From: an uncultured Chloroflexia bacterium
GTDB taxonomy: Bacteria; Chloroflexota; Limnocylindria; QHBO01
Reading direction: 5' to 3'
Assembly: GCA_963750025.1 (NCBI GenBank)
Contig: CAVVPF010000007.1
Location: forward strand, 95,661-159,660
DNA: 64,000 nucleotides
This document shows positions 1,482-56,275 of the stretch, piece by piece; within the stretch, counting starts at the first letter, position 1; each line of letters begins with the position of its first letter. The notes beneath the pieces were generated by a model. The model was given only the letters and a program-made list of their open reading frames with translations, was not told where the DNA came from and searched no databases. Position numbers and translations under genes: made by a program.

Positions 1482-2372
1482 TCACGGAGCGAAGACGACG
1501 GGCATTCGTTCGTCGGGACAGCTGACGATAAGCGAGGCGAGCGCGCTTCGCTCTCCGGTGTCAACGGCGAGGCTCCAGCGCACCTTCACCGCGATCCATG
1601 CAGATAGGTACGGGCATAGGTAGCTGGACGTGGGAGGCAGCCAGTCTGCCGGGTCCTGGTCCGACTTGCTCCGGTTCGACGAGGCCGAGACAGCAATCAG
1701 GGACCACGAGACCCCCAGGTCGTTGGCGAAACGTTCACGGCGGTCCGCATTCCAGCCGTATGCGCCCGAGTCCCAGGCTTCGGCAAGGGCGACGACGTGG
1801 TCGATGTCGAGACCACTCGGATCGGTGAAGAAGAGCTCGTCGTAGAGGCTCACCCATGAGCCGCCGGAGATGCCGCACGTCACGCTCACGGTCACGGCAG
1901 TCAGCGATTCCTCGATGAGCACCTCGCGGCGCGTGTCGCAGCCGTCGCCGTCGGCGTCGATCCAGTGACGGAACAGAGAGCGGTCATAGCCCGCCCGTTG
2001 TTCTGGAGCGGTCGGCAGGATGGCCAAGAGCTCGGCGAGGGTGAGCCATCCCGTGGACGCGGTCGCTGAGGGCGACGGCGAAGGGGTGGGCTTGGTGCTC
2101 GGCGCTGGCGAGGAAGCCATCGTCGGCATCGGCGTGGCGGTGGCGACATCGCTCGGGCTCGGCGGGGGCGTGACAGACGGAGGCGCAGATAGTTGGCGCG
2201 GTGAAGGAGTCGGCGAATCGGCGGGGGACGCTTCCGGGGACTCTGCGCTCTGCGACGCCTCCGCGGTTCCGGTCGGCATGCCGACCCTCGCCAGTCCAGC
2301 CGCAGATGACAGGAGCACGGCCAAGGCCACTGCCACGAGGACCAACTGGCTGGACGGCGAGAGGCGGCGCAT
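1482..2372 (-). CDS. Secreted DUF1524 / HNH-type (GmrSD C-terminal-like) nuclease domain protein
   Basis: Signal/TM 'LVLVAVALAVLLSSAAG', then an S/P/T-rich linker. Motifs 'HWIDADGDGCDTRREVL', 'DIDHVVALAEAWDSGA' and 'NRSKSDQDPADWLPP'. Confidence 0.7.
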   Translation of the reverse strand: MRRLSPSSQLVLVAVALAVLLSSAAGLARVGMPTGTAEASQSAESPEASPADSPTPSPRQLSAPPSVTPPPSPSDVATATPMPTMASSPAPSTKPTPSPSPSATASTGWLTLAELLAILPTAPEQRAGYDRSLFRHWIDADGDGCDTRREVLIEESLTAVTVSVTCGISGGSWVSLYDELFFTDPSGLDIDHVVALAEAWDSGAYGWNADRRERFANDLGVSWSLIAVSASSNRSKSDQDPADWLPPTSSYLCPYLSAWIAVKVRWSLAVDTGERSALASLIVSCPDERMPVVFAP

Positions 2373-2406
2373 CCGATGGGATCCCCAATTAGAGTGCCTA
2401 GCAGGC

Positions 2407-4826: not shown

Positions 4827-5160
4827 CGCTGCGACGATACAACCTCGCACCAGGCATTGTGCGAGCCATTTTGAGTGAGTCAGCTGCGACGATTCAGCAT
4901 CTTGGGATAGACGGGCGAATCTACGCGCCCCGACCGAAACGACCTCCTTCTGATCGGCCCAAGACCGGGACCGCGCGAAGCACGAATCGGACGGTCTTCG
5001 GGGGGCTCCTCTTTTGGGACGGGTCTGCGCGGGTCGGCGCGGGCCGGCGCGGCCGCTCGGACCTCCCGGCCAACTCGTCGGCCCTCGAGTCTCGGGAGTC
5101 GCTGACCGGACCGTCGGAGAGGGTGTTCGCCCCGTCGCCCCGACCAGTCTGGTAAGCCGA

Positions 5161-14517: not shown

Positions 14518-16121
14518 CCCCGCTGTCCGCGGGCGCGGCCTCCTCGGGGCGCGTGCTGGCCCGGGCGGGCCTGATCCTGACTATTGCCGCGCTGGCCAGT
14601 CGCCTGCTCGGTTGGGTGCGCCTGCTGGTGATCGGCTCGCAGTTCGGCGCATCGCGTGAGCTGGACGCCTACTTCGCCGCCTTCCGCATCCCCGATGCCA
14701 TCTTTCAGCTGGTGATCGCCGGCGCGCTGAGTGCAGCGCTCATCCCGGTATTCAGCGGCTACCGGGCGCGCGGCGAGGAGGACGAGGCCTGGAAGCTGGC
14801 CAGCAGCGTCATCAACCTGGTCCTCATCGCGCTCGCCGGCTTCAGCCTGGTGATGGCCATCCTGGCGCCGCTGGTGGTGCCGTTCGTGGCGCCGGGCTTC
14901 GACGCGCCGACCACCGAACTGACGATCCGCATGACCCGCGTGATGCTGCTCAGCCCGGTCTTCATCGGCATGGGGGCGGTGGTCAGCGGGATCCTCAACA
15001 GCTACGAGCGCTTCACCGTGCCGGCCATTGCGCCGCTCGTGTACAACCTGGCGATCATCGGGTCGGCAATCGTGCTGGCGCCGATCATGGGCGTGGAGGG
15101 GCTGGCGGTCGGGGTGGCGCTCGGCTCGCTGCTGCACCTGGCCATCCAGCTGCCGCAGCTGCGCAAGGTGGGGCAGCGCTATGACCTCACGATCGGGCTG
15201 TCGCACCCCGGCGTCCGCAAGGTGGCCTGGCTGATGGGCCCGCGCATGCTCGGCTTGGCCGCTGCCCAGATCAACTTCATCGTCAGCACGGTGCTGGCCA
15301 GCGGCCTGCCGCGGGGCAGCCTGACCTCGTTCAACTACGCCTTCCAGCTGATGCAGGTGCCGGTCGGCGTGGTGGGCGTCAGCGTGGCGGTGGCGCTCTT
15401 CCCGCGCCTGTCGCGCGAGGCGGCGCTCGGCAGGCTCGCCGACGTGCGCCGCTACGTGGCCCAGACGCTCCGCATCCTCCTCTTCGTGGCGGCGCCGCTG
15501 ACCGCGATCATGACCGTCCTGCGCGGGCCGCTGACCGCGGTCTTCTTCCAGTACGGCCTGTTCAGCGCCCGCGCGACCGCGCAGACCGCAGATGCGCTCC
15601 TCTTCTTCACCCTGGGGCTTGCTGCCTATACCGTGGTGCACGTGCTGGCGCGCGCCTTCTATGCCCTGCAGGACACCCGCACCCCCGTGCTTTGGGCGGT
15701 GCTATCGGTCGTCCTCAACGTGCCCCTCATGATCTGGCTGGTGAGGCCGATGGCCGTCAACGGCCTGGCGCTGGCCATGTCGATCACCGCCACGGTGGAG
15801 GTGCTGGGCCTGGTCTGGGCGCTGCACGACCGGCTCAACGGCCTGGAGCTCGGCGAAGTGCTCACCTCGCTTGGCCGCTCGGCCGCGGCGGCGACCGGGA
15901 CCGGGCTGCTCATCTTCGGCGGGCTGCAGGTGGTCGACCTGTGGTTCGGCGGTGCGCTCGCCAATGGGCTCGGCCGGTTGATCGTGCTGCTGGCACTATC
16001 GGCGATCGGGTTGCTGGCCTACGCGGCCTTCGCGCTGGCCCTCCGTTCGCCCGAGCTTGGTGAGCTGCGGCGCCTGTTGCGGCGACGGCTGACGGGCGCT
16101 CCCGGACAGGAGCCGACATGA
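14514..16121 (+). CDS. murJ: Lipid II flippase MurJ (MviN)
   Basis: 535-aa polytopic protein. 'RLLGWVRLLVIGSQFGASRELDAYFAAFRIPD', 'FAPGF', 'LAAAQINFIVST'. Confidence 0.9.
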   Translation: MTPLSAGAASSGRVLARAGLILTIAALASRLLGWVRLLVIGSQFGASRELDAYFAAFRIPDAIFQLVIAGALSAALIPVFSGYRARGEEDEAWKLASSVINLVLIALAGFSLVMAILAPLVVPFVAPGFDAPTTELTIRMTRVMLLSPVFIGMGAVVSGILNSYERFTVPAIAPLVYNLAIIGSAIVLAPIMGVEGLAVGVALGSLLHLAIQLPQLRKVGQRYDLTIGLSHPGVRKVAWLMGPRMLGLAAAQINFIVSTVLASGLPRGSLTSFNYAFQLMQVPVGVVGVSVAVALFPRLSREAALGRLADVRRYVAQTLRILLFVAAPLTAIMTVLRGPLTAVFFQYGLFSARATAQTADALLFFTLGLAAYTVVHVLARAFYALQDTRTPVLWAVLSVVLNVPLMIWLVRPMAVNGLALAMSITATVEVLGLVWALHDRLNGLELGEVLTSLGRSAAAATGTGLLIFGGLQVVDLWFGGALANGLGRLIVLLALSAIGLLAYAAFALALRSPELGELRRLLRRRLTGAPGQEPT

Positions 16122-17635: not shown

Positions 17636-18705
17636 GCATCCGCGTCCGTCCAGCGACCTCGGCCGATCGACGCGCCTGGGACGCCTTCGTGGCGGCCCGT
17701 CCCGAGGGGGACCCGCTCCAGTGCTGGGCCTGGGGGGAGTGCTCAGCCCTGGCCGGCGAGGTGCCCCAGCGCCTGATCGCCGAGGAGGCCGACGGGCGGC
17801 TGCGGGGCGTGGCGCAGGCGCTCGTCCGTCCTGCCGGCTTCGGTCGCCAGGTCGCCTACGTGCCGCACGGCCCGGTCTGGGAACGCGAGGCGCCCGACGC
17901 TGGCAACCTCCTGGCGGCCCTGGTCGAGGGTCTGCGTCAGATGGGGCGCCGGGAGCGAGCGATCGTCGTCAAGCTCGATCCGCGCACCACGCTGACCGAG
18001 GACCGCGAGGCCCTGGCGGCAGGCCTCCTCTCCTTCGGCGCGCGTCGCTCGCGGGACCACCTCCAGGCTCCTAGCACGCGCATCCTCGATCTGACGGTCA
18101 GTCGTGAGGCCCTGTGGGCGACCTGGGATCCCGATGCCCGCAACAGCGTCCGGCGCGCCGCGAAGGAGGGAGTGACGGTCGTACTGGATCGCACCGGCGA
18201 CCCCGCGGCCGTCGAGATCCTCGCCGCGCTGCACCAGCGCACCGCCGAGCGAGCCGCCTTCCGCGGGCGGTCGGCCGCCTTCCTGGGCGAGGCGGCGCGG
18301 CGCTTCGCTGCCAGTGGCGGCTGGTACCTCGGCCAGGCGATCTTCGAGGGTCGGCCGATCTCGGCGATGGGCTTCCTGCGGGTCGGCGATCGCGCCTTTT
18401 ATCTTTGGGCGGGCTCACTGCGCGACCCCGCGCTCAACGCCGCGCGCGGCCCGTATGCGGCGCTCGCCGCCGCGATCGACGCCCTGGCGGCCGATGGCTG
18501 CCGAAGCCTCGACCTGTGGGGCGTGACCGAGTCGGGCGACACCCAGGCCGATCCGGGAGCGGCCGGCTACAGCCGCTTCAAGCGCAAGTTCGGCGGCGCC
18601 TCGCTGCACCACCCCGGCCTCTTTGACCTGGTGATCGATCCGTTCTGGTACCGCGCCCGGCAGGCCCGTGGCCTGCTGCTCGGTCGTCTCCGTCCTGCCG
18701 GCTGA
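17632..18705 (+). CDS. FemAB-family peptidoglycan bridge-forming aminoacyltransferase
   Basis: ATG overlaps the murE stop (ATGA). 'WDAFVAARPEGDPLQCWAWGE', 'LDLWGV', 'GYSRFKRKFGG'. About 357 aa, typical FemAB/MurM length. Confidence 0.75.
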   Translation: MSIRVRPATSADRRAWDAFVAARPEGDPLQCWAWGECSALAGEVPQRLIAEEADGRLRGVAQALVRPAGFGRQVAYVPHGPVWEREAPDAGNLLAALVEGLRQMGRRERAIVVKLDPRTTLTEDREALAAGLLSFGARRSRDHLQAPSTRILDLTVSREALWATWDPDARNSVRRAAKEGVTVVLDRTGDPAAVEILAALHQRTAERAAFRGRSAAFLGEAARRFAASGGWYLGQAIFEGRPISAMGFLRVGDRAFYLWAGSLRDPALNAARGPYAALAAAIDALAADGCRSLDLWGVTESGDTQADPGAAGYSRFKRKFGGASLHHPGLFDLVIDPFWYRARQARGLLLGRLRPAG

Positions 18706-18924: not shown

Positions 18925-21145
18925 ATGGACCTGGCACGCCTGCGGGCGGCCCCGGCCGCCGTGGCGAAGCGCATCTCACGGTCCGCGGAGCAGGCGGCCA
19001 GGACGCCCACCATCGAATCTGTCGTCGCCGAGGCGCGACGCCATCGGCCGAGCATCAACGTCGGCCTGATCGAACGCGCCCACGAGGTGGCGACGGCCGC
19101 CCACGAGGGGCAGCTGCGGGCATCGGGCGAGCCGTACATCACCCACCCGGTGGCGGTCGCCTACGAGCTGGCGGCGCTCCAGATGGACGCCGAGAGCATC
19201 GCCGCGGCGCTCCTCCACGACGTCCCCGAGGACACCGACCTGACCATTGCCGGACATCGAGAAGCGCTTCGGGCGCGAGGTGGCGCAAGGCTGGTCGACG
19301 GGGTCACCAAGCTCAGCAAGTTCGGATCGGCCCGCTCCATGGAGGAGCAGCAGGCGGAGAACATCCGAAAGATGTTCCTGGCCATGGCCGAGGACGTGCG
19401 GGTGGTCATCATCAAGCTCGCCGACCGGCTCCACAACATGCGCACGCTCGGCGCCCTGCCGCCCGACAAGCAGATTCGCATCGCACGCCAGACGATGGAG
19501 ATCTACGCGCCGCTGGCGCATCGGCTGGGGATCTGGCAGTGGAAGTGGGAGCTCGAGGATCTGGCGTTCAAGTACACCGAGCCGGAGAAGTTCCGCAAGC
19601 TGGTCGAGATGCTGGCCGACCGTCGCAAGGAGCGCGAGTCGTTCATCAACAAGAGCATCACCATCCTGCGCAAGGAGCTGGCCAAGGTCGGCATCGAGGC
19701 GGAGATCAGCGGCCGGCCCAAGCACCTGTACAGCATCTCCCGCAAGATGGAGCGCAAGGGCGCTGAGTTCAGCGAGATCTACGATCTGCACGCCATCCGG
19801 CTGATCGTCGAGGAGGTGAAGGACACCTACGCCGCCCTGGGCGTGGTGCATTCGCTGTGGCGACCGATCCCGGGGCAGTTCGATGACTACATCGCCATGC
19901 CGAAGGCGAACCTCTACCAGTCGCTGCACACCGCCGTGATCGGTCCCGATGCCAAGCCGCTCGAGGTCCAGATCCGGACCCGCGAGATGCACGAGGTGGC
20001 GGAGGCTGGGATCGCCGCGCACTGGCGCTACAAGGAGGGCTCGCGCGGCGACCGGCGTTACGACGAGAAGCTGGCCTGGGTCCGCCAGCTGATCGAGTGG
20101 CAGCGCGAGGTGGTCGACGCCACCGAGTTCGTGGAGGGGCTCAAGCTCGACGTCTTCCAGGACCAGGTCTTCGTCTTCACCCCCAAGGGCGACGTCAAGG
20201 ACCTGCCCAACGGGGCCACCCCGCTCGACTTCGCCTACCGGATCCACACCGATGTCGGCCACCGCACCATCGGCTCCAAGGTCAACAACCGATTGGTGCC
20301 GCTCGACTACCGGCTGCGCAACGGCGACATCGTCGAGATCATCACCACCAAGGCGGCCCACGGGCCGTCGCGGGACTGGTTGTCGATCGTGCGCACCAAC
20401 CAGGCGCGCGAGAAGATCCGTGCCTGGTTCAAGCATCAGCAGCACGACGAGAACATCGACGCACGGCAAGGAGATGCTCGATCGCGAGCTGCGCCGCCTG
20501 GCCCACGAAACGCTGGCCACCATCCACGCCGAGAAGCTGCTCGAGATCGTGCAGCGCGCGCACTACAAGGAGCTGGACGACTTCTACGCCGCCATCGGCT
20601 ACGGCGCGGTCTCGGCGGCGAGCGTGGTCGGCAAGCTCGAGATCCACGACGATGCGGCGATCACCCTGCCCGAGGTCGCGCCGCCCACCGCCGCGGTCAC
20701 CTCAAGCGGGATCCGGGTCAAGGGGGTGGGCGACCTGCTGGTGCGCTTCGCGAACTGCTGCACGCCGATCCCCGGCGACGAGATCACCGGCTACGTGACC
20801 CGCGGCAAGGGGGTCACGGTGCACCGCGCCAGCTGCCCGTCGGTGCTGTCGGAGAAGGACATCGAGCGGCTGATCCACGTCGACTGGGAGGCGATCGACC
20901 AGCAGACCTACCCGATCACGGTGCGCATCACCGCCCTCGACCGCGCGGGCCTGCTCAACGAGATCACCAACGTGGTCGCCGAGGACAAGGTCAACATCGT
21001 GGCGGCCAGCATCGGAACGCACGACGATGGGACGGCCGTCATCACCGCCACGCTCAAGGTGACCAGCCTCCAGCAGCTGGCCAAGGTCCTGTCGCGCATC
21101 GAGCGAGTGCGCGACGTGATCAGCGTCGCTCGCGAGGCGCGCTAG
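18925..21145 (+). pseudogene. relA: Bifunctional (p)ppGpp synthetase/hydrolase RelA/SpoT homolog, one frameshift near 20461
   Basis: HD 'HPVAVA..HDVPEDT'; synthetase 'RPKHLYSISRKM','DLHAIRLIV'; TGS 'VFTPKGDVKDLPNGATPLDFAYRIH'. After 'WFKHQQHDENID' the protein continues in the +1 frame as 'HGKEMLDRELRRL...' (ORF 20252..21145) through the ACT domain. Confidence 0.9.
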
Positions 21146-21240
21146 GGGCTTCGCGGCGGGGCCTGGCCGGCGGAGCCGATCGACGCCGGGATAGGCAGAT
21201 CTTGGCGGTCATCAGCGCGTCACAGTTATCGCCGTCGTGG

Positions 21241-21387
21241 GTTATCTCTCAGTTGCGGGGGCTTATTGCACGCGGGTGAGCTGCATCCGCGGCCCGCCGG
21301 AGCGTAATTCTCCCTGGCTGAGAGGTAGGTTACCGGGGCGGCAGCCGGCAGCCGCTTCCAAGGTGTAAACGTCCGAGGGGGAGAATT
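21241..21387 (-). repeat. 146-147 nt structured repeat element, copy C (inverted relative to copies A and B)
   Basis: Its reverse complement aligns with 54532..54677 and 56040..56185. Shared blocks: 'aattctc', 'ctctc-N7-gagaa.tacgctc.ggcgggccgcgga', 'ataagccccc', 'ctgaga.ata'. Confidence 0.8.
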
Positions 21388-21416
21388 ACGAATGCGCGCG
21401 CATCGACGGGCTTACA

Positions 21417-21560
21417 CGGCCTACCATACGGCCTACCATTCGGCCTGCCATTCGGCCTGCCATCGGGCCTGGCTCTGCGGCCCGGCTCTACGGCCCGGCT
21501 CTGCGGCCTGGCTCTCCGACCCGGCTCTGCGACCCGGCTCTGCGGCCCGGCTCTCCGGCC
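21417..21560. repeat. Two adjacent tandem arrays: ~12-bp unit x4, then ~13-bp unit x7
   Basis: 'cggcctaccata/cggcctaccatt/cggcctgccatt/cggcctgccat', then 'cggcccggctctg'-type units (7 copies with point variants). They abut the 'aattctc' end of copy C. Confidence 0.85.
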
Positions 21561-21610
21561 CGGGCCGAGAGATGGCTCGCGTGGCGTAGCCGGCTCGGTA
21601 CACTCCGCGC

Positions 21611-40517: not shown

Positions 40518-40738
40518 GTGGCCGATGCGGTGCGCGTGCGCCCGCCGCTGCCCTCTGACGCGGCTGCGCTCGCCGGGCTGGCCGCAGAACTGGGCTACCC
40601 GACCAGCTCGGAGGCGCTGCTTGGCCGACTTGCCGCGCTTCATCCGACCGATGCCGCCGGCGCGCGCATCGGTTCTATGCGCGCGAAGGGTACGTGGTGA
40701 ACAAGACGTCGTACTTCCTGACCAAGTCCCTCGACTGA
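40518..40738 (+). pseudogene. GNAT acetyltransferase remnant (N- and C-terminal ends only; core deleted and frameshifted)
   Basis: N-terminus 'VRVRPPLPSDAAALAGLAAELGYP'. The typical GNAT C-terminus 'ARHRFYAREGYVVNKTSYFLTKSLD*' is in a different frame and ends at TGA 40736-40738. About 70 codons in total. Confidence 0.5.
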
Positions 40739-40773
40739 CCTGGAGCCCGCCCTGGCATATACTTTCGCCCGCC

Positions 40774-42747
40774 GTGACGATCCTTGAGAGACTGACCGAT
40801 CCGGCCCAGCTGCGGGGCATGGCGCCGGACGACCTGGCAGCCCTGGCCACCGAGCTGCGCGAGAAGATGATCCGCACCGTGCAGCGCACCGGCGGGCACC
40901 TCGCCAGCTCGTTGGGAGTGGTCGAGATCACCCTTGCCCTCCACCGGGTGATGGACTCGCCGCGCGATCGGATCGTGTGGGACACCGGGCACCAGGCCTA
41001 TGCCCACAAGCTGCTCACCGGGCGGCTGGAGCGCTTCCACACCCTGCGCCAGTTGGATGGGGTGAGCGGCTTCCCGCGCCGCTCCGAGAGCGAGCACGAC
41101 GTCTTCGACGGGGGGCATGCCGGGACCGGTGTGAGCATCGCCGTCGGGCTGGCCGCGGCGCGCGATCTGCTCCCCGTCGGCGACCCGGGGCGACGGCAGC
41201 GGATCGCGGTCTGCGTCGGCGATGCAGCCCTGCAGAGCGGCCTCACCCTGGAGGCGCTCAATCACCTGGGCGACATGCGAAATCGACTCCTGATCGTGCT
41301 CAACGACAACGAGATGAGCATCAGTCCCAGCGTCGGCGGCCTGGCGACCAACCTGAACAAGCTGCGTCTCAGTCGTGCCTACCAGGAGACAAAGTCCGCC
41401 ACCGCTCGCCTGCTCCCGCGCGTGCCCCTGGTCGGGGGGCCGCTCTATCGTGGCCTGGCTTTCGCCAAGGAGGGCTTCAAGCGCTCATGGGCCAAGGTCG
41501 GCTTCTTCGAGGACATTGGCATCACCTATATCGGCGTTCTCGACGGCCATGACGTCGACGGAGATGGAGGAGGTCTTTGAGCGGGCGTTCGCGCTGCACG
41601 GGCCGGTGCTGGTGCACGTCAAGACGACCAAGGGCAAGGGTTATGGTCCCGCCGAGCTGGACAGCGTCAGCTTCCACGGTGCCTAGCTGCCGCCGATCGA
41701 CCTGTGCCTGATCGATCCGACCGAGGAGCCGCTGCCGCCGGTCAGCGAGCCGCGCCGTCGGCCCAAGACCTACACCGCCGCCTTCGGCGAGGAGCTGGTG
41801 CGCCTGCCGCAGCCGATGACGACGGATCTGCGCCATCACCGCCGGCATGCCCACCGGGACCGGCCTGTCGCGCTTCGCGGCGCGTTTCCCGTCGCGCTTC
41901 TTCGACGTGGGGATCGCCGAGCAGCACGCGGTCACCATGGCCGCCGGCCTGGCGCTGGGCGGCAAGCGGCCGGTGGTGGCGCTCTACTCGACCTTCAGCC
42001 AGCGCGCCTTCGACCAGCTGGTCCACGACGTCTGCCAGAACGACCTGCCGGTCCTGCTGGCGATCGACCGCGCCGGCCTGGTCGGCGAGGACGGGACGAG
42101 CCACCAGGGGATGTTCACGCTGCCCGCGCAGCGCGCCCTGCCGAACCTGGTGATCGGCTCGCCCAAGGACGAGCAGGAGCTGCGCGACATGGTGCTGACG
42201 GCGTTGCTGCATGAAGGGCCGGTCTCGCTGCATTACCCGCGCGACCCCGGCGAGGATCTCCCGACCGGGAAGGGGTGCGGCTCGAGATCGGGCGTGGGGA
42301 GGTGCTGCGGCCCGGCGGCGGACCTGCTGCTCGTCGGCTTCGGGCCGATCGTGCAGCGCCTGCTGGCGTGGCGGACGCCCTGCTGCGCCAGCACGGACTG
42401 CATGCCGGCGTGATCAACGCTCGCTGGGCCAAGCCGCTCGACGAGGCCCTGCTGGCCGCCAGCGCCTCCGGCTGCCGGCTGGTGGTGACCGCCGAGGAGA
42501 GCGCCGCCATGGGCGGCTTCGGCGACGGCGTGCTCGACGCGCTGAACCGGGCAGGGGTCCAGGGTTCCGCTGCTCAAGATGGCGCTGGCGGAAGGGTTCG
42601 TCCACCACGGCGCGGTCGACGACCTGCGGCGCCAGCAGCGGATCGACGTGCTCGGGATCCTGGCGCAGGTCCGCGAGGCGCTCGGGCCTGGCCCGCCCCG
42701 CAGCCGAGTCCCGCGGCCGAGCACCGTCGAGCGCCAGCGCCGCCTGA
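40774..42747 (+). pseudogene. dxs: 1-deoxy-D-xylulose-5-phosphate synthase, at least 6 frame switches and one in-frame TAG
   Basis: 'GGHLASSLGVVEITLALH', 'WDTGHQAYAHKLLTGR', 'GDAALQSGLTLEALN', 'DVGIAEQHAVTMAAGLA', 'DRAGLVGEDGTSHQG', 'INARWAKPLDE'. Pieces lie in ORFs 40525.., 41375.., 41847.., 42275.. and 42579... TAG at 41684-41686 follows 'SFHGA'. Confidence 0.88.
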
Positions 42748-50874: not shown

Positions 50875-51390
50875 GTGTCGATCGAGCTACGCGCCTTCCT
50901 CGAGGCGCTCCTGTTCGTCGCTGAACGGCCATTGACCACGGCGGAGATGGCGGAGCTCGGCGGCGTGTCCGCGCCTTCAGGCGGAGGCGAGCCTGGCAGG
51001 GCTCGCCGAGGAGATGGTCGATGCCGGTCGCGGGCTGCGCCTCCAGCGCCTTCATGACGCCTGGCAGATGGTCACCGCGCCGGAGGTCGGGGAGCGGCTG
51101 GCCGCCTACGCCTCGCGTGCCGAGGCGAGGCTGACGCCCGCTGCCCTGGAAGCGCTGGCGGTGGTCGCCTATCGGCAACCCTGCACCCGCGGCGAGGTTG
51201 ATCGGGTACGCGGCGTCGATTCCGACTACGTCATGCGCTCGCTGCTGCATCGGCGCCTGATGGCCAGGAGGTTGGTCGGCGCGACACGCCCGGCCGGCCC
51301 ATCCTGTACGGCACCAGCTTCGCCTTCCTGGAGCGCTTCGGGCTCACCTCGCTCGACAACCTGCCGGTCCTGGCGGCCGATGCCGGCTGA
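50875..51390 (+). pseudogene. scpB: Segregation and condensation protein B, about 2 frameshifts
   Basis: 'LRAFLEALLFVAERPLTTAEMAEL' | '[71 protein letters not shown]' | '[25 protein letters not shown]' in a third frame. TGA at 51388-51390. Confidence 0.8.
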
Positions 51391-52822
51391 GCGTCTCCAG
51401 AAGCTTATGGCCCGTGCCGGGGTCGCCTCGCGGCGCGGCGCGGAGGCGCTCATCGAAGCCGGCCGGGTGATGGTCAACGGACGTGTGGCCACCATCGGGG
51501 AGAGCGCCGATCCGGCCAGCCAGAGGATCGAGCTGGACGGAGTTCCGCTGGGCGCGGCGCAGGCGACGGTGCACTACGCGGTCCACAAGCCGCGCGGCTA
51601 CCTGTCCTCCGCGCAAGCGGAGCGTGGGCACCGCTCCGTGGTCGAGCTGGTCGGTCCCCATGGCGGATCACGGCTGTGGCCGGCCGGCCGCCTCGACCTC
51701 GATTCGGAGGGGCTCATGATCCTGACCAACGACGGGGCCTGGGCGAACCGCGTGCTGCATCCGCGCTACGGCCTGGAGCGTGAGTACGCCGTGCTGCTGG
51801 ACGCCATGCCATCCGACGCTGAGCTGAGAACCTTGTTGGACGGGGTGGAACTCGACGACGGCACGGCGCGCCTGCTGGCCGTTGAGCGCCGCGCTCCGCC
51901 GCCCGAAATGGCACCTCCTTCGCTGCTGGGGGGCGCCTGGCTGCGGACACGGGTGGGGGAGGGTCGCAAGCGAGAGGTGCGCCGTCTGTTCGCCGCCGTC
52001 GGACGACAGGTCGAGCGACTGGTCCGCACCCGGCTCGGGCCCCTGACCCTCGACGGGCTCACCGAGGGAGCCTGGCGCCCGCTTCGATCCGAGGAAGTGG
52101 AGGCGTTGGCCGGGAGGCGGCCGCGGGTTGCCGCGCCTGCCGCCCGACGCGCGCCGTTGACGGTCGCCATCGACGGACCATCGGGCTCTGGCAAGAGCAC
52201 CATCGGCCACGCCCTGGCGCAGCGCATCGGCGCGACCTTCGTCGACACCGGGCTGATGTACCGGGCGCTCACCCTGGCCGCGCTGGAACGCGGCATCGAC
52301 CCTGATGACGAGGCCGGGTTGACGCGCCTGGCGCGCGCCGTGCGGATCGAGGTGCGGAAGCCCCGCCGCGACCAGGCCGACCGTCGCGAAACGGTCCTGC
52401 TCGACCGCGACGACGTGACAGCCCAGGCTCGCACGCCGCGCATCGACCGGGCGGTCTCGCGAGTCAGCCGGCATGCCGCCGTGCGTGCGGCCATGCTGAC
52501 CGTGCAACGTGCCGCGGCGCGACGGCGCGACACGGTGATGGTCGGCCGTGATATCGGTACGGTGGTTGTGCCCGACGCCATGCTGAAGGTCTTCCTGACC
52601 GCCTCTGCCGTTGTGCGCGCCGCGCGGCGGGCAGCCGAGATGGGACGCCCCGAGCGCGGCGACCGCTACCTGGCCGAGATCCTCGAACGCGACGCGGCCG
52701 ACACCCAACGCCCGGTGGCCCCGCTGCGCAAGGCGAGCGGCGCCCTGGTGCTCGACACCGGCGAGTTGGATGTCGCCGCCTGCGTCAGCGCCATCGTCGC
52801 CGTGCTGTCCGGCCCGCGATGA
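51380..52822 (+). CDS. Single ORF fusing an RluB/RsuA-type pseudouridine synthase to cytidylate kinase
   Basis: S4 '[30 protein letters not shown]'; '[18 protein letters not shown]'; 'REYAVLL'; then with no stop '[35 protein letters not shown]' and '[13 protein letters not shown]', 'FLTAS..RA.RR'. Confidence 0.8.
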
Positions 52823-54368: not shown

Positions 54369-54400
54369 GCGCCGTACCGGATGGCAGGCTCGTGTAAGCC

Positions 54401-54527
54401 TGCCGATGCCTGCCGATGCCTGCCGATGCCTGCCGATGCCTGCCGATGCCTGCCGATGCCTGCCGATGCCTGCCGATGCCTGCCGATGCCTGCCGATGCC
54501 TGCCGATGCCTGCCGATGCCTGCCGAT
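54401..54527. repeat. Perfect tandem decamer array (tgccgatgcc) x12 plus a 7-nt partial unit
   Basis: Read directly: 12 identical 10-bp units from 54401 to 54520, then 'tgccgat'. It abuts the 5' end of repeat element copy A. Confidence 0.97.
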
Positions 54528-54531
54528 CCGC

Positions 54532-54677
54532 AATTCTCAGCCTCGGAGGCTTACGGACAAAGAGCTGCGGCCGGGGGCCTCTCCGATAGACTGGCTCTCG
54601 GCCAGTGAGAAATACGCTCTGGCGGGCCGCGGAAGTGCTGACCCGCCTGCCATAAGCCCCCACGGCTGAGAAATAGC
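54532..54677 (+). repeat. 146-nt structured repeat element, copy A
   Basis: 'aattctcagcctcggaggcttacgg...ctctcggccagtgagaaatacgctctggcgggccgcggaagtgctgacccgcctgccataagcccccacggctgagaaatagc'. Same length and block structure as 56040..56185. Confidence 0.85.
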
Positions 54678-54716
54678 GCCATGACGGCGATGGGCCGGTG
54701 GCGTCGCGCCACTCAG

Positions 54717-55970
54717 TCACTGCGCCTGGCCGTTCGGCTCAATCAGTCGCCGCAGCCGGCGCCGCAGGACCTTGTAGGAGAGGCGCCGCCGGGCGATGTC
54801 GTAGTTGCGACGCGCAATCCGCGCCTGGCGCTGCGGGCTGGCCAGTACCGCGCGGACCGCCGCGACCGTCTCGTCGGTGATGCGCCCGTCGATCTCGATG
54901 AACTCCAGGCCAAGCGTTGCGATGTCCGCCACGAACACCGGGTATCGGTTCACCACCACCGGCCTGCCGTAGAAGATGGCCTCAATCAGCGCGTTGCCAT
55001 AGCCCTCGTACAGGCTGGGGTAGGTGACCAGGTCCGCGGCCAGGTAGGCGTCATGAAGGGTGTGCGCCGGGCCGAGGCGCTTGCCCTCCAGGTCCGGCTC
55101 GAAGCGATCGGCGGCGTAGCGGAGCCGCACCCCCGCGTACTCCGCCTGGCGCTCGAGCTCCACCAGGTAGTCCAGGCCCTCGTCGCCGGCCGGGCTGGTG
55201 ATGAGCAGGACCGCGTCGGGATCTCGCAGCCGCCCCACCAGCTCGATCGCCAGCTCGATGCCCTTGCGTGGCACCACCCGCGTCGGCTGGACGACCAGTA
55301 GGCCGCGGTCGCCCATGCCCAGCTCGGCGCGCATCCGGCGCCGCATGGCCGGATGGGGGCGTGGCCGCGGCCGCTCGAAGTCGAAGACGTTGGGCACGAC
55401 CATCGAGTCCAGACCGCGGCGCACGCGCAGCTGGGCTGCCGCCAGGCTGTTGATGCTCACGTGGCGGACGTTGGGCAGATCCGGCGGAAAAGCCTCGTCC
55501 AGGAGCTCCGGCACCACGCAGTCCTTGAACCGCTCCCGCTCCCACCAGTAGTCGTGGTGGTGGCCGATGGCCGGGATCCCGCGCCGCTCGACGATCCGTC
55601 GCAGCGCCAGGCCGAGCGGAATGTGCATCGGGATGGCCCACGCGTTCTCGACGATGAGCTGCTCGAGGTGCTGCGACTCGATCCAGCTGTCCAGCACGGG
55701 AATCAGCAGGTCGGCCAGTCGCTCGATCTCCGCCCGGACGGCCACCGCGTCGCTGTCCGGGTCGAAGGCGGCGGCGGTGACGCGGGCGGCGGGCGGCCAG
55801 GAGAAGTGCATCGGCGGCACCAGGCGTGCGCTGGCGCGCAGGGCGTCCACCTCGCCGGCGCACAGGCGGATCTCGTGGCCCATGCGCTCGAGCGCCATCT
55901 CCCACTTGGAGGTCTCGAAGGTGACGCCGTCGACCCCGGCCAGGCGGGTGGACACGATCCCGATGCGCAT
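54717..55970 (-). CDS. GT-B fold glycosyltransferase (GT4 / group-1-like)
   Basis: ATG at 55970. 'MRIGIVSTRLAGVDGV', 'GHHHDYWWERERF', 'VQPTRVVPRKGIELAI', 'YPSLYEGYGNALIEAIFYGRPVVVNRY'. Acceptor specificity unknown. Confidence 0.8.
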   Translation of the reverse strand: MRIGIVSTRLAGVDGVTFETSKWEMALERMGHEIRLCAGEVDALRASARLVPPMHFSWPPAARVTAAAFDPDSDAVAVRAEIERLADLLIPVLDSWIESQHLEQLIVENAWAIPMHIPLGLALRRIVERRGIPAIGHHHDYWWERERFKDCVVPELLDEAFPPDLPNVRHVSINSLAAAQLRVRRGLDSMVVPNVFDFERPRPRPHPAMRRRMRAELGMGDRGLLVVQPTRVVPRKGIELAIELVGRLRDPDAVLLITSPAGDEGLDYLVELERQAEYAGVRLRYAADRFEPDLEGKRLGPAHTLHDAYLAADLVTYPSLYEGYGNALIEAIFYGRPVVVNRYPVFVADIATLGLEFIEIDGRITDETVAAVRAVLASPQRQARIARRNYDIARRRLSYKVLRRRLRRLIEPNGQAQ

Positions 55971-56000
55971 CGGGCCGATACTAGCCGGGACCCGAGCCCA

Positions 56001-56030
56001 CCGGTGCCCGCCGGTGCCCGCCGGTGCCCG
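56001..56030. repeat. Tandem decamer (ccggtgcccg) x3
   Basis: Three exact units, 31 nt upstream of the glycosyltransferase start and immediately 5' of repeat element copy B. Confidence 0.9.
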
Positions 56031-56039
56031 CCGACCGAT

Positions 56040-56185
56040 AATTCTCACGCTCGGAGGCTTATGCCGAAGGCGCGGTCGTCAGCGACCTCCGCGACAGCCT
56101 GCCTCTCAACCTGTGAGAAGAACGCTCCTGCGGGCCGCGGATCAGCTCACTCGCTTGCCATAAGCCCCCGCAGCAGAGAAATAGC
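56040..56185 (+). repeat. 146-nt structured repeat element, copy B
   Basis: 'aattctcacgctcggaggcttatgcc...ctctcaacctgtgagaagaacgctcctgcgggccgcggatcagctcactcgcttgccataagcccccgcagcagagaaatagc'. Confidence 0.85.
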
Positions 56186-56275
56186 GGCCAGTCGCCCGCG
56201 AGTCGACAGGATCCCGATACCCATCGCGCCGACGTCGCCCGGGACCCGAGCCCGCTGAAGGCTACACTCGGAGTC

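Follow-up and report, generated by a model that had tools for sequence, protein, structure and literature searches.

The window analysed here, a stretch of 64 kb, belongs to the metagenome-assembled genome of an uncultured soil bacterium of Candidatus Limnocylindria (Chloroflexota). The nearest named homologues of its Der and HisS proteins belong to MAGs labelled Chloroflexota / Candidatus Limnocylindria. Three copies of a non-coding repeat are placed in it between housekeeping neighbours. The gene order cmk-plsC-ispH is followed by copy A, a GT4 gene on the minus strand, copy B and der, and copy C is found between relA and hisS. A sequence-only reading of the window had located these copies at 54532-54677 (plus strand), 56040-56185 (plus) and 21241-21387 (minus) and had described them as intergenic; they were found there, each with a length of ~146 nt, with pairwise identities of ~75% (blastn), and were recovered by a covariance model with E-values of 1e-33 to 1e-36 and scores of 148-160 bits. 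The mean column identity was 84% over the ~146 nt of the three-copy alignment, flanks counted. The 5′ block pattern AATTCTCNNNCTCGGAGGCTTA, allowing up to three mismatches, had exactly three matches in the window against 0.00 expected, and all of them were the copies. Orthologous copies, designated A′, B′ and C′, were observed at all three sites in a sister species (loci L001-L004 and L023; the species includes GCA_031370085.1).

All three copies are intergenic. Copy C is overlapped solely by a mechanical open reading frame (18925-21279) that continues past a frame change in relA, and alignment with a relative placed the true relA stop codon at TAG 21143-21145. The sequences of the units, which reach ~190-330 nt when their tandem arrays are included, contain no open reading frame common to the copies. 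A small protein was considered for a 42-codon frame on the minus strand of copy A, and this frame was found to be absent from copies B and C.

Some features of the neighbouring genes may be recorded beside this. Several housekeeping genes have a split or fused appearance at 18925-21279, 20252-21145, 51014-52822 and 40525-42413 of the window, where relA changes frame, rluB-cmk continues the frame of the 3′ part of scpB and dxs is split into two reading frames, a pattern that suggests assembly indel errors or pseudogenes. A single gene of 479-480 aa, in which S4 and RluB-like pseudouridine synthase parts are fused to cytidylate kinase, was present in all fetched relatives. Moreover, TACACT/TAGTAT boxes stand 7-9 nt upstream of the start codons of der (~56262-56267), hisS (~21597-21602) and GT4 (55979-55984, minus strand), and no Shine-Dalgarno sequence was visible at these three starts. 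This arrangement looks like leaderless mRNAs, with promoters placed back to back in the 50-nt GT4-der spacer of relatives.

When the six distinct copies (A, B, C, A′, B′ and C′) were parsed, the core was found to consist of three copies of a module of ~25 nt, of which M1 is in forward orientation and M2 and M3 are inverted, and the module ends in an AT-rich box, TGAGAAWTA. With one mismatch allowed, this box occurs eight times in the 64 kb, always within the elements, against 2.1 expected. The features are collected in Table 1.

Table 1. Positions and composition of the repeat copies, their adjoining features and one neighbouring gene fusion.
Feature	Location	Positions	Strand	Sequence, basis or remark
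Module M1				TAATTCTCA...GGAGGCTTA
Variable part				~37 nt, between M1 and M2
Module M2				inverted M1 copy, GCCTCTCAG..GTGAGAATTACG
Sub-block				between M2 and M3; holds invariant GGGCCGCGGA
Module M3				second inverted M1 copy, CATAAGCCCCC...TGAGAAATAGC
Copy A head, motifs x-y	window	54377-54397	+	CCGGATGGCAGGC / TCGTGTAA; homology to heads of C and A′
Copy A z-array	window	54398-54527	+	10-nt unit GCCTGCCGAT x13, 100% identical; TRF
Copy A core	window	54530-54677	+	alignments; covariance-model score 147.7 bits
Copy A core parts	window	M1 54530-54556; variable 54557-54592; M2 54593-54615; sub-block 54616-54650; M3 54651-54677	+	sub-block with GGGCCGCGGA
Copy A tail	window	54678-54716	+	core to GT4 stop codon (54717-54719); has GACGGCGAT box
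Site B left target-duplication copy	window	55938-55999	+	includes GT4 start codon and likely -10 box
Copy B z-array	window	55996-56033	+	10-nt unit GCCCGCCGGT x3.8; TRF; resembles z units of A and A′
Copy B core	window	56038-56185	+	alignments; covariance-model score 158.2 bits
Copy B core parts	window	M1 56038-56064; variable 56065-56100; M2 56101-56123; sub-block 56124-56158; M3 56159-56185	+	
Site B right target-duplication copy	window	56186-56253	+	directly after ...GAGAAATAGC; region of expected der -35
Copy C tail/flank	window	21155-21240	-	relA stop to core; conserved with L023 2162-2246 (score 109, z=33.7)
Copy C core	window	21241-21389	-	alignments; covariance-model score 160.4 bits
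Copy C core parts	window	M3 21241-21267; sub-block 21268-21303; M2 21304-21326; variable 21327-21362; M1 21363-21389	-	
Copy C head, one z and one y motif	window	21390-21416	-	...CGTCGATGCG..., GTGTAAGCC
Copy C x-array	window	21417-21471	-	12-nt unit x4.6 (AATGGCAGGCCG, element strand); TRF
13-nt array adjoining copy C head	window	21466-21563	-	x7.5; TRF
A′	L001	8173-8315		orthologue of copy A
B′	L001	9748-9888		orthologue of copy B
C′	L023	~2250-2396	-	orthologue of copy C
RluB-like/cytidylate kinase fusion	window; L001; L005; L017	51014-52822; 5111-6553; 5730-7169; 3949-5391		

The cores are well conserved between the two species. Core identity was 77% for A/A′, 90% for B/B′ and 87% for C/C′, with at most one indel per pair and none in B/B′, whereas the four-fold degenerate sites of four flanking genes were 63-69% identical between the window and L001, and the tails and arrays adjoining the cores showed large indels between orthologues. 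Conservation above the level of four-fold sites indicates that the cores are probably under constraint. Since decaying selfish DNA would be expected to look otherwise, the cores, as far as these alignments tell, are either functional or recently exchanged between the two species. The paralogues are ~75% identical and so predate the species split.

The folding potential of the core is extensive. In copy A, fold energies were -74.5 kcal/mol for the plus strand and -82.4 kcal/mol for the minus strand (z of -4.8 and -6.6), and copy C contains a perfect 12-nt complement between M1 and M2 (CGTAATTCTCCC/GGGAGAATTACG). RNAalifold favoured, on either strand, M1:M2 pairing together with a separate 3′ hairpin. 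Across the six sequences, 87.7% of the M1:M2 cells were paired, with four compensatory pairs, a result reached by 12-15 of 500 shuffles, whereas M1:M3 had 78.7% of cells paired and no compensatory pair and was equalled by all 500 shuffles; both pairings exceeded slid controls. Thus, the complementarity between the 5′ and 3′ ends that the sequence-only reading had stressed does exist (23 nt at 83% in copy A, 29 nt at 72% in copy B), and yet it is M1:M2 that is better supported as the preferred fold. The two GAGAAWTA boxes were likewise present, and of these the internal one was the better partner for the 5′ end. The proposal that both compete for this end in mutually exclusive folds received some support from the folds and the pairing counts. 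The CTCTC-N7-GAGAA block was invariant in all six known copies, and the GGCGGG/CCCGCC stem was partly kept, being broken or shifted in the sister-species copies according to the alignment.

The covariation that had been proposed as a check was not convincing, with its four compensatory pairs in M1:M2, none in M1:M3, and six sequences. Moreover, the substitutions between orthologues in the stems broke a pair in 17 cases and kept one in five, no better than slid controls, which weighs against the earlier claim of RNA or DNA secondary structure, even though the potential to fold is real. Paired columns had a substitution rate about half that of unpaired columns in all three orthologue pairs. The conserved feature therefore appears to be mainly the module sequence, and a secondary structure of the core is plausible as a model. 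The repeat is supported as a genuine, previously uncatalogued family that is able to fold extensively.

These observations bear on a first alternative, in which the repeat would be a structured non-coding RNA family, either an sRNA gene in three paralogues or an RNA acting in cis within transcripts of the neighbouring genes, with a fold that switches between M1:M2 and M1:M3 and an insertion history that merely tells how the genes arose. Core sequence and length are conserved far above four-fold sites, unpaired blocks such as GGGCCGCGGA and ATAAGCCCCC show little or no variation, and one of the four compensatory M1:M2 pairs changes from A-U to C-G in copy C. In addition, the minus strand folds better (consensus -44.7 versus -35.9 kcal/mol, with single-sequence energies also lower), and in this reverse orientation the copies are co-directional with the adjacent genes, GT4 for A and B and both relA and hisS for C. 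However, the stem changes between orthologues resemble slid controls, the six sequences are three orthologue pairs and so carry little statistical power, and Rfam holds no relative. No sigma-70-like promoter was found at the elements, and the terminator search returned one weak terminator-like site, so that a role as intrinsic terminator or promoter was set aside. Furthermore, a gene precedes A and C, which lie on its downstream side, whereas B lies upstream of GT4 with no gene upstream of it, which makes a single cis role hard to frame. An RNA family is rather unlikely.

The core is not the whole unit. Tandem arrays were called by TRF, and every core was found to have a short-unit array on its M1 (5′) side, within a head composed of a series of motifs x-y-z of 10-13 nt each. 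The length of 146-147 nt given previously therefore holds for the core, and the full unit is larger, a variable tandem-repeat head plus the core. The head of copy A starts 9 nt past the stop codon of ispH (lytB). With the expansions set aside, the heads of A and C share a local alignment of ~33 nt (z=11.3) and those of A′ and C align with z=7.7; the homology between copies reaches ~45 nt upstream of the core. The amplified motif differs, since x was expanded in C and z instead in its orthologue C′ (x3.9), and the z-array at site A counts 13 units in the window, four in L001 and three in L004, the latter two loci being otherwise 99.7-100% identical. This head homology between copies, together with the motif-specific expansion, indicates that the head belongs to the element and behaves as a VNTR, and replication slippage is inferred as the simplest cause of the arrays. 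The z-array of copy B is degenerate in L001, and its first ~4 nt in the window overlap the end of the left target duplication described below, the inserted DNA starting from ~56000. By comparison with the sequence upstream of hisS in L020, the 13-nt array that adjoins the head of copy C may be expanded native hisS-upstream sequence and not element DNA.

Short-unit expansions seem to be common in the spacers of this lineage. Away from any element copy, tandem arrays with units of 10, 24 and 21 nt occur in the window at 5020-5052, 15980-16027 and 18253-18296, and a 7-nt array (GAGCCGC, ~5 units) was observed at ~9935-9975 of L001, where it has arisen within the right-hand copy of the target duplication at site B.

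The prominence of sequence over pairing is also what would be expected if the repeat were a cluster of protein-binding DNA sites, serving nucleoid organisation, recombination or the regulation of adjacent promoters. Candidate sites would be the three AT-rich 9-mers, which are exclusive to the elements, the palindromes CCGCGG and GAGCTC, and the repeats phased at 10 bp, a period equal to one helical turn; as read from the sequence, the arrays abut the expected -35 regions of GT4 and hisS. Against this, no candidate protein is known, and both the sequence and the number of the array units differ between orthologues, which leaves this explanation improbable.

The history of the copies was examined in syntenic loci of relatives whose Der protein is 92-96% identical to that of the window. 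The three sites were filled in the window and in L001-L004/L023, with spacers of 305-670 nt, whereas five other relatives (L005, L016, L017, L018 and L019) had compact sites without the element. Thus, at site A, ispH and GT4 overlap in L005 and are separated by a 19-nt gap in L017; at site B, the GT4-der spacer is 50 nt in L005, L016, L017 and L018; and at site C, the relA-hisS spacer is 92 nt in L019. GT4 was orthologous in every relative compared, with 87-93% amino-acid identity. Given these compact sites and the orthology of GT4 throughout, the copies represent insertions in the lineage leading to the two species; the alternative, losses in all other relatives, would be less parsimonious. 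As judged from this synteny, the units are shown to have entered the three spacers (ispH/GT4, GT4/der and relA/hisS) in the common ancestor of the two Limnocylindria species. The three copies are real, old insertions that stayed conserved.

Two of the sites showed further changes. The last ~7 residues of GT4 read EPNGQAQ or EPNGLAQ where element A is present and EPYPVSA or EPIVDVR where it is not (window 54717-54740, L005 8697-8720, L017 6957-6980), and the 3′ end of GT4 was probably exchanged for new sequence when the element inserted at site A. In L020-L022 and L024, which have no element, a different gene of 399-403 aa lies between relA and hisS (L020 1786-2985, L021 1790-3001, L022 705-1916, L024 1472-2671). 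It was considered as a possible transposase and gave a sub-threshold match to the GT-C-type glycosyltransferase family GT87 and nothing transposase-like. With this gene in some relatives, nothing in L019 and element C in the window and L023, the relA-hisS spacer is a hot spot of rearrangement.

The clearest insertion boundaries were found at site B. A direct repeat of 56 nt, ungapped and 79% identical, brackets the insert (55944-55999 and 56198-56253), with a score of 53, where shuffled sequences averaged 19.2 (sd 2.7), which gives a z of about 12, and the corresponding 58-60 nt are single in the four empty sites of L005, L016, L017 and L018 and double in the window. The order is the left duplication copy, the 10-nt array and the core, so that the inserted DNA comprises ~56000-56185, and the right junction is exactly the 3′ end of the core (...GAGAAATAGC). 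The duplication covers the GT4 start codon and, as read from the sequence, the probable GT4 -10 box and the expected der -35 region; since the start signals of both genes are spanned, GT4 and der each retained their own copy. The inverted repeats M1/M3 measure 23-29 nt at 72-83% identity, and M3 ends at the right junction, while on the left the insert begins with the z-array, ~40 nt outside M1. No target duplication was demonstrable at sites A and C, as local alignments over-extended or lacked overlap, and TA dinucleotides flank several cores inconsistently in the sequences read.

Downstream of the cores, the tail of copy A is unstable, being 74 nt longer in L001, and its minus strand contains a small hairpin followed by CTATTTCTC. 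Its GACGGCGAT box is common to A′, C and C′, and the tail of copy C ends in a ATCGCCGTC box adjoining M3. Homology of the tails between copies was considered and found not to be significant outside the short GACGGCGAT box. In L023, a pseudo-copy of the last ~22 GT4 codons plus the A′ tail (1950-2147; ~70% identical, score 80, z=25.5) lies between relA and C′, ~100 nt from the latter, indicating that flanking DNA of one copy moved next to another. This pseudo-copy holds a 9-nt array (CCTGCACCG x4.6), apparently derived from a repetitive LRRRLRRL coding stretch. The idea that copy C was copied from A along with the GT4 end was not adopted, and is kept as a lead, because the GT4 fragment in L023 is non-contiguous with the C′ core.

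Such a moved flank is what local segmental duplication would produce, by illegitimate recombination or template switching and without dedicated mobility machinery. A hairpin- and slippage-prone segment would then have been copied a few times within a neighbourhood of ~35 kb and have drifted since. All known copies do lie within 35 kb, two of them flank one gene, the unit boundaries differ from those of the inverted modules, and tandem expansions are frequent in these spacers. However, the clean duplication of 58-60 nt around an insert that ends exactly at the core end resembles staggered-cut insertion, no significant similarity links the proximal tail of C/C′ to the A′ tail, so that the copied flank is non-contiguous with the core, and conservation is left unexplained. 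Segmental duplication is an unlikely account of the family.

The same fragment near C′, being the 5′-truncated 3′ end of GT4, could also recall a SINE-like retroposon, in which a transcript running from M3 to M1 to the head would be copied in by target-primed reverse transcription. This would predict a long target duplication, a 3′-terminal simple-repeat array and, now and then, host sequence carried along from upstream; the arrays do lie at the 3′ end when the element is read in reverse, and the duplication at site B is long. Nevertheless, no reverse transcriptase was found in the window or the fetched loci of relatives, the host-gene fragment is non-contiguous with the core, and ordinary slippage between near-identical strains accounts for the variation of the arrays. 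We know of no SINE-like retroposon system in bacteria, and this origin is very improbable here.

The search for relatives of the repeat was carried out at several levels. At gathering scores, Rfam returned only tRNA over the whole window; a search of the surroundings of A and B at E<=10 came back empty, and that of C gave mere noise, at 13-16 bits and so well short of gathering scores, in agreement with the previous remark that the repeat matches no known RNA family. A scan of a genome collection for GCGGGCCGCGGA...ATAAGCCCCC gave no match. A relaxed core signature retrieved from 185,579 species representatives the sister-species contig alone, besides five chance matches dissimilar to the element, and from a metagenome collection four chance matches, none of them similar to it; the exact core signature had a single match in one representative genome of the sister species. 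No match was obtained in viral contigs scanned with the core signature or in plasmids by blastn. In 248-287 kb of related DNA, nhmmer (--max) and the calibrated covariance model recovered the known copies only. The covariance-model search that had been suggested thus yielded the orthologues of the sister species and, in ~290 kb of related DNA, none besides. The family is tiny and confined to one clade, and such a scarcity of further copies is part of what the sequence-only reading had said would speak against it. With regard to machinery, a Pfam scan of 43 window ORFs revealed no transposase and no reverse transcriptase, only two Xer-type recombinases. The literature searched on repeats in this clade offered nothing.

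These results altogether lead us to favour, tentatively and at somewhat less than an even chance, a small, clade-restricted family of low-copy, MITE-like or BOX-like insertion elements that are modular, non-coding and non-autonomous. Insertion relative to the relatives and the one target duplication of 58-60 nt point to descent from a mobile element and away from an RNA gene of the classical kind. Movement would be catalysed in trans by an enzyme encoded outside the window, for which the inverted modules would serve as recognition ends, and the arrays would have grown by slippage during replication. The surviving copies would have been kept since the inverted modules now serve the host, by which the elements have probably been co-opted. 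The likeliest roles may be the formation of long M1:M2 or M1:M3 hairpins in read-through transcripts from the neighbouring genes, or the spacing and insulation of closely packed neighbouring promoters. Several observations stand against insertion elements. First, the left edge of the insert at site B is the z-array and not M1, so the inverted modules are not both at the insert termini. Second, a target duplication is demonstrable at B and not at A or C. Third, there are three copies in 64 kb and none besides in the ~290 kb of related DNA, with no known autonomous partner, and neither transposase nor reverse transcriptase was found among the 43 window ORFs. Fourth, conservation above the neutral level is unexpected of purely selfish DNA, and the core itself could instead be a functional RNA or a protein-binding site. 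There is also a slight chance that the element moved by a mechanism undescribed for bacterial non-autonomous repeats, one that makes long duplications, leaves a short-repeat array at one terminus and possibly carries host flanks; target-primed reverse transcription of a read-through transcript and a staggered-cut or one-ended system would be examples.

This is the first small repeat family described for Candidatus Limnocylindria, an abundant class of uncultured soil Chloroflexota. The 10-13-nt arrays vary between strains that are otherwise 99.7-100% identical and are therefore possible strain markers in metagenomes. The copies adjoin essential genes (ispH, der, relA/hisS) at their starts or ends, with a degree of conservation like that of coding sequence, and thus may shape the expression of these genes. 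Should the single target duplication of 58-60 nt prove typical, the mode of insertion would be an uncommon one. The family is tiny and touches no long-standing open question, and so its value is moderate.

Among known systems, integron attC sites, of 60-140 nt, are also imperfect inverted repeats whose centre varies, and the arrangement A-GT4-B recalls a gene with such a site on both sides. However, GT4 occupies the same place in relatives without elements, the element ends, as read from the sequence, are unlike the attC end consensus RYYYAAC/GTTRRRY, and no integrase of that type lies nearby. REP and BIME sequences are likewise palindromic repeats of intergenic regions, able to combine into mosaics and to influence the ends of mRNAs, and REPs are linked to RAYT transposases. 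REPs are units of 20-40 nt in high copy, many of them with a GTAG or CGTC tag (PMC3733652). Yet unit size, copy number, tag and RAYT link are all inapplicable to the present family.

The long target duplication recalls the IS1634 family, whose members IS1549 and IS1634 produce long, variable duplications, from 8-514 bp in size (PMC2266710), a range that contains the 58-60 nt of site B, at that one site only. The family consensus has C as its first letter (PMC2266710, table), which says little about the present ends. Its members are of 1.5-2 kb and encode a DDE transposase, and the search around the repeat turned up neither such a gene nor a terminal sequence in common. To our knowledge, IS1549 and IS1634 are the sole bacterial elements known to make duplications this long.

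With MITEs the repeat has in common a short (<~600 bp), non-coding sequence and presence/absence polymorphism, and it lacks their fixed short target duplication. Correia elements duplicate TA and occur in many copies, whereas the present copies are very few, are conserved between species and display one clear duplication, of 58-60 nt, with the left inverted module off the insert edge. The likeness to Correia, ERIC and MITE sequences lies in a size of ~100-160 nt, in inverted repeats of a terminal type that measure ~25 nt, in intergenic insertion with filled and empty sites, and in the potential for a long hairpin upon read-through (PMC2649163, PMC10969869, PMC2229807). Correia elements supply promoters and RNase III sites (PMC2649163).

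Of the features of a composite repeat, conserved end modules and a tandem module of variable number are present, the arrays being outside the core on the M1 side. In the BOX elements of Streptococcus, which are far more numerous per genome than the handful of copies found here, the variable module (boxB, ~45 nt) stands between the paired modules, whereas here it measures 10-13 nt and lies outside the paired core; moreover, there are three copies of the end module instead of two, and the sequences are unrelated, those of the present family being from a high-G+C Chloroflexota bacterium and without a match in the annotated collections searched. BOX elements are composed of boxA-(boxB)n-boxC with a variable number of boxB (PMC3049150). 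Like the present family, they are small, non-coding, intergenic and modular, their conserved end modules can pair into a stem-loop, their tandem module varies in number between strains and loci, and they are sited near promoters and gene ends (PMC3049150). The layout of the Limnocylindria repeat thus appears closest to that of BOX elements, and it resembles Correia-type MITEs too (PMC2649163, PMC10969869).
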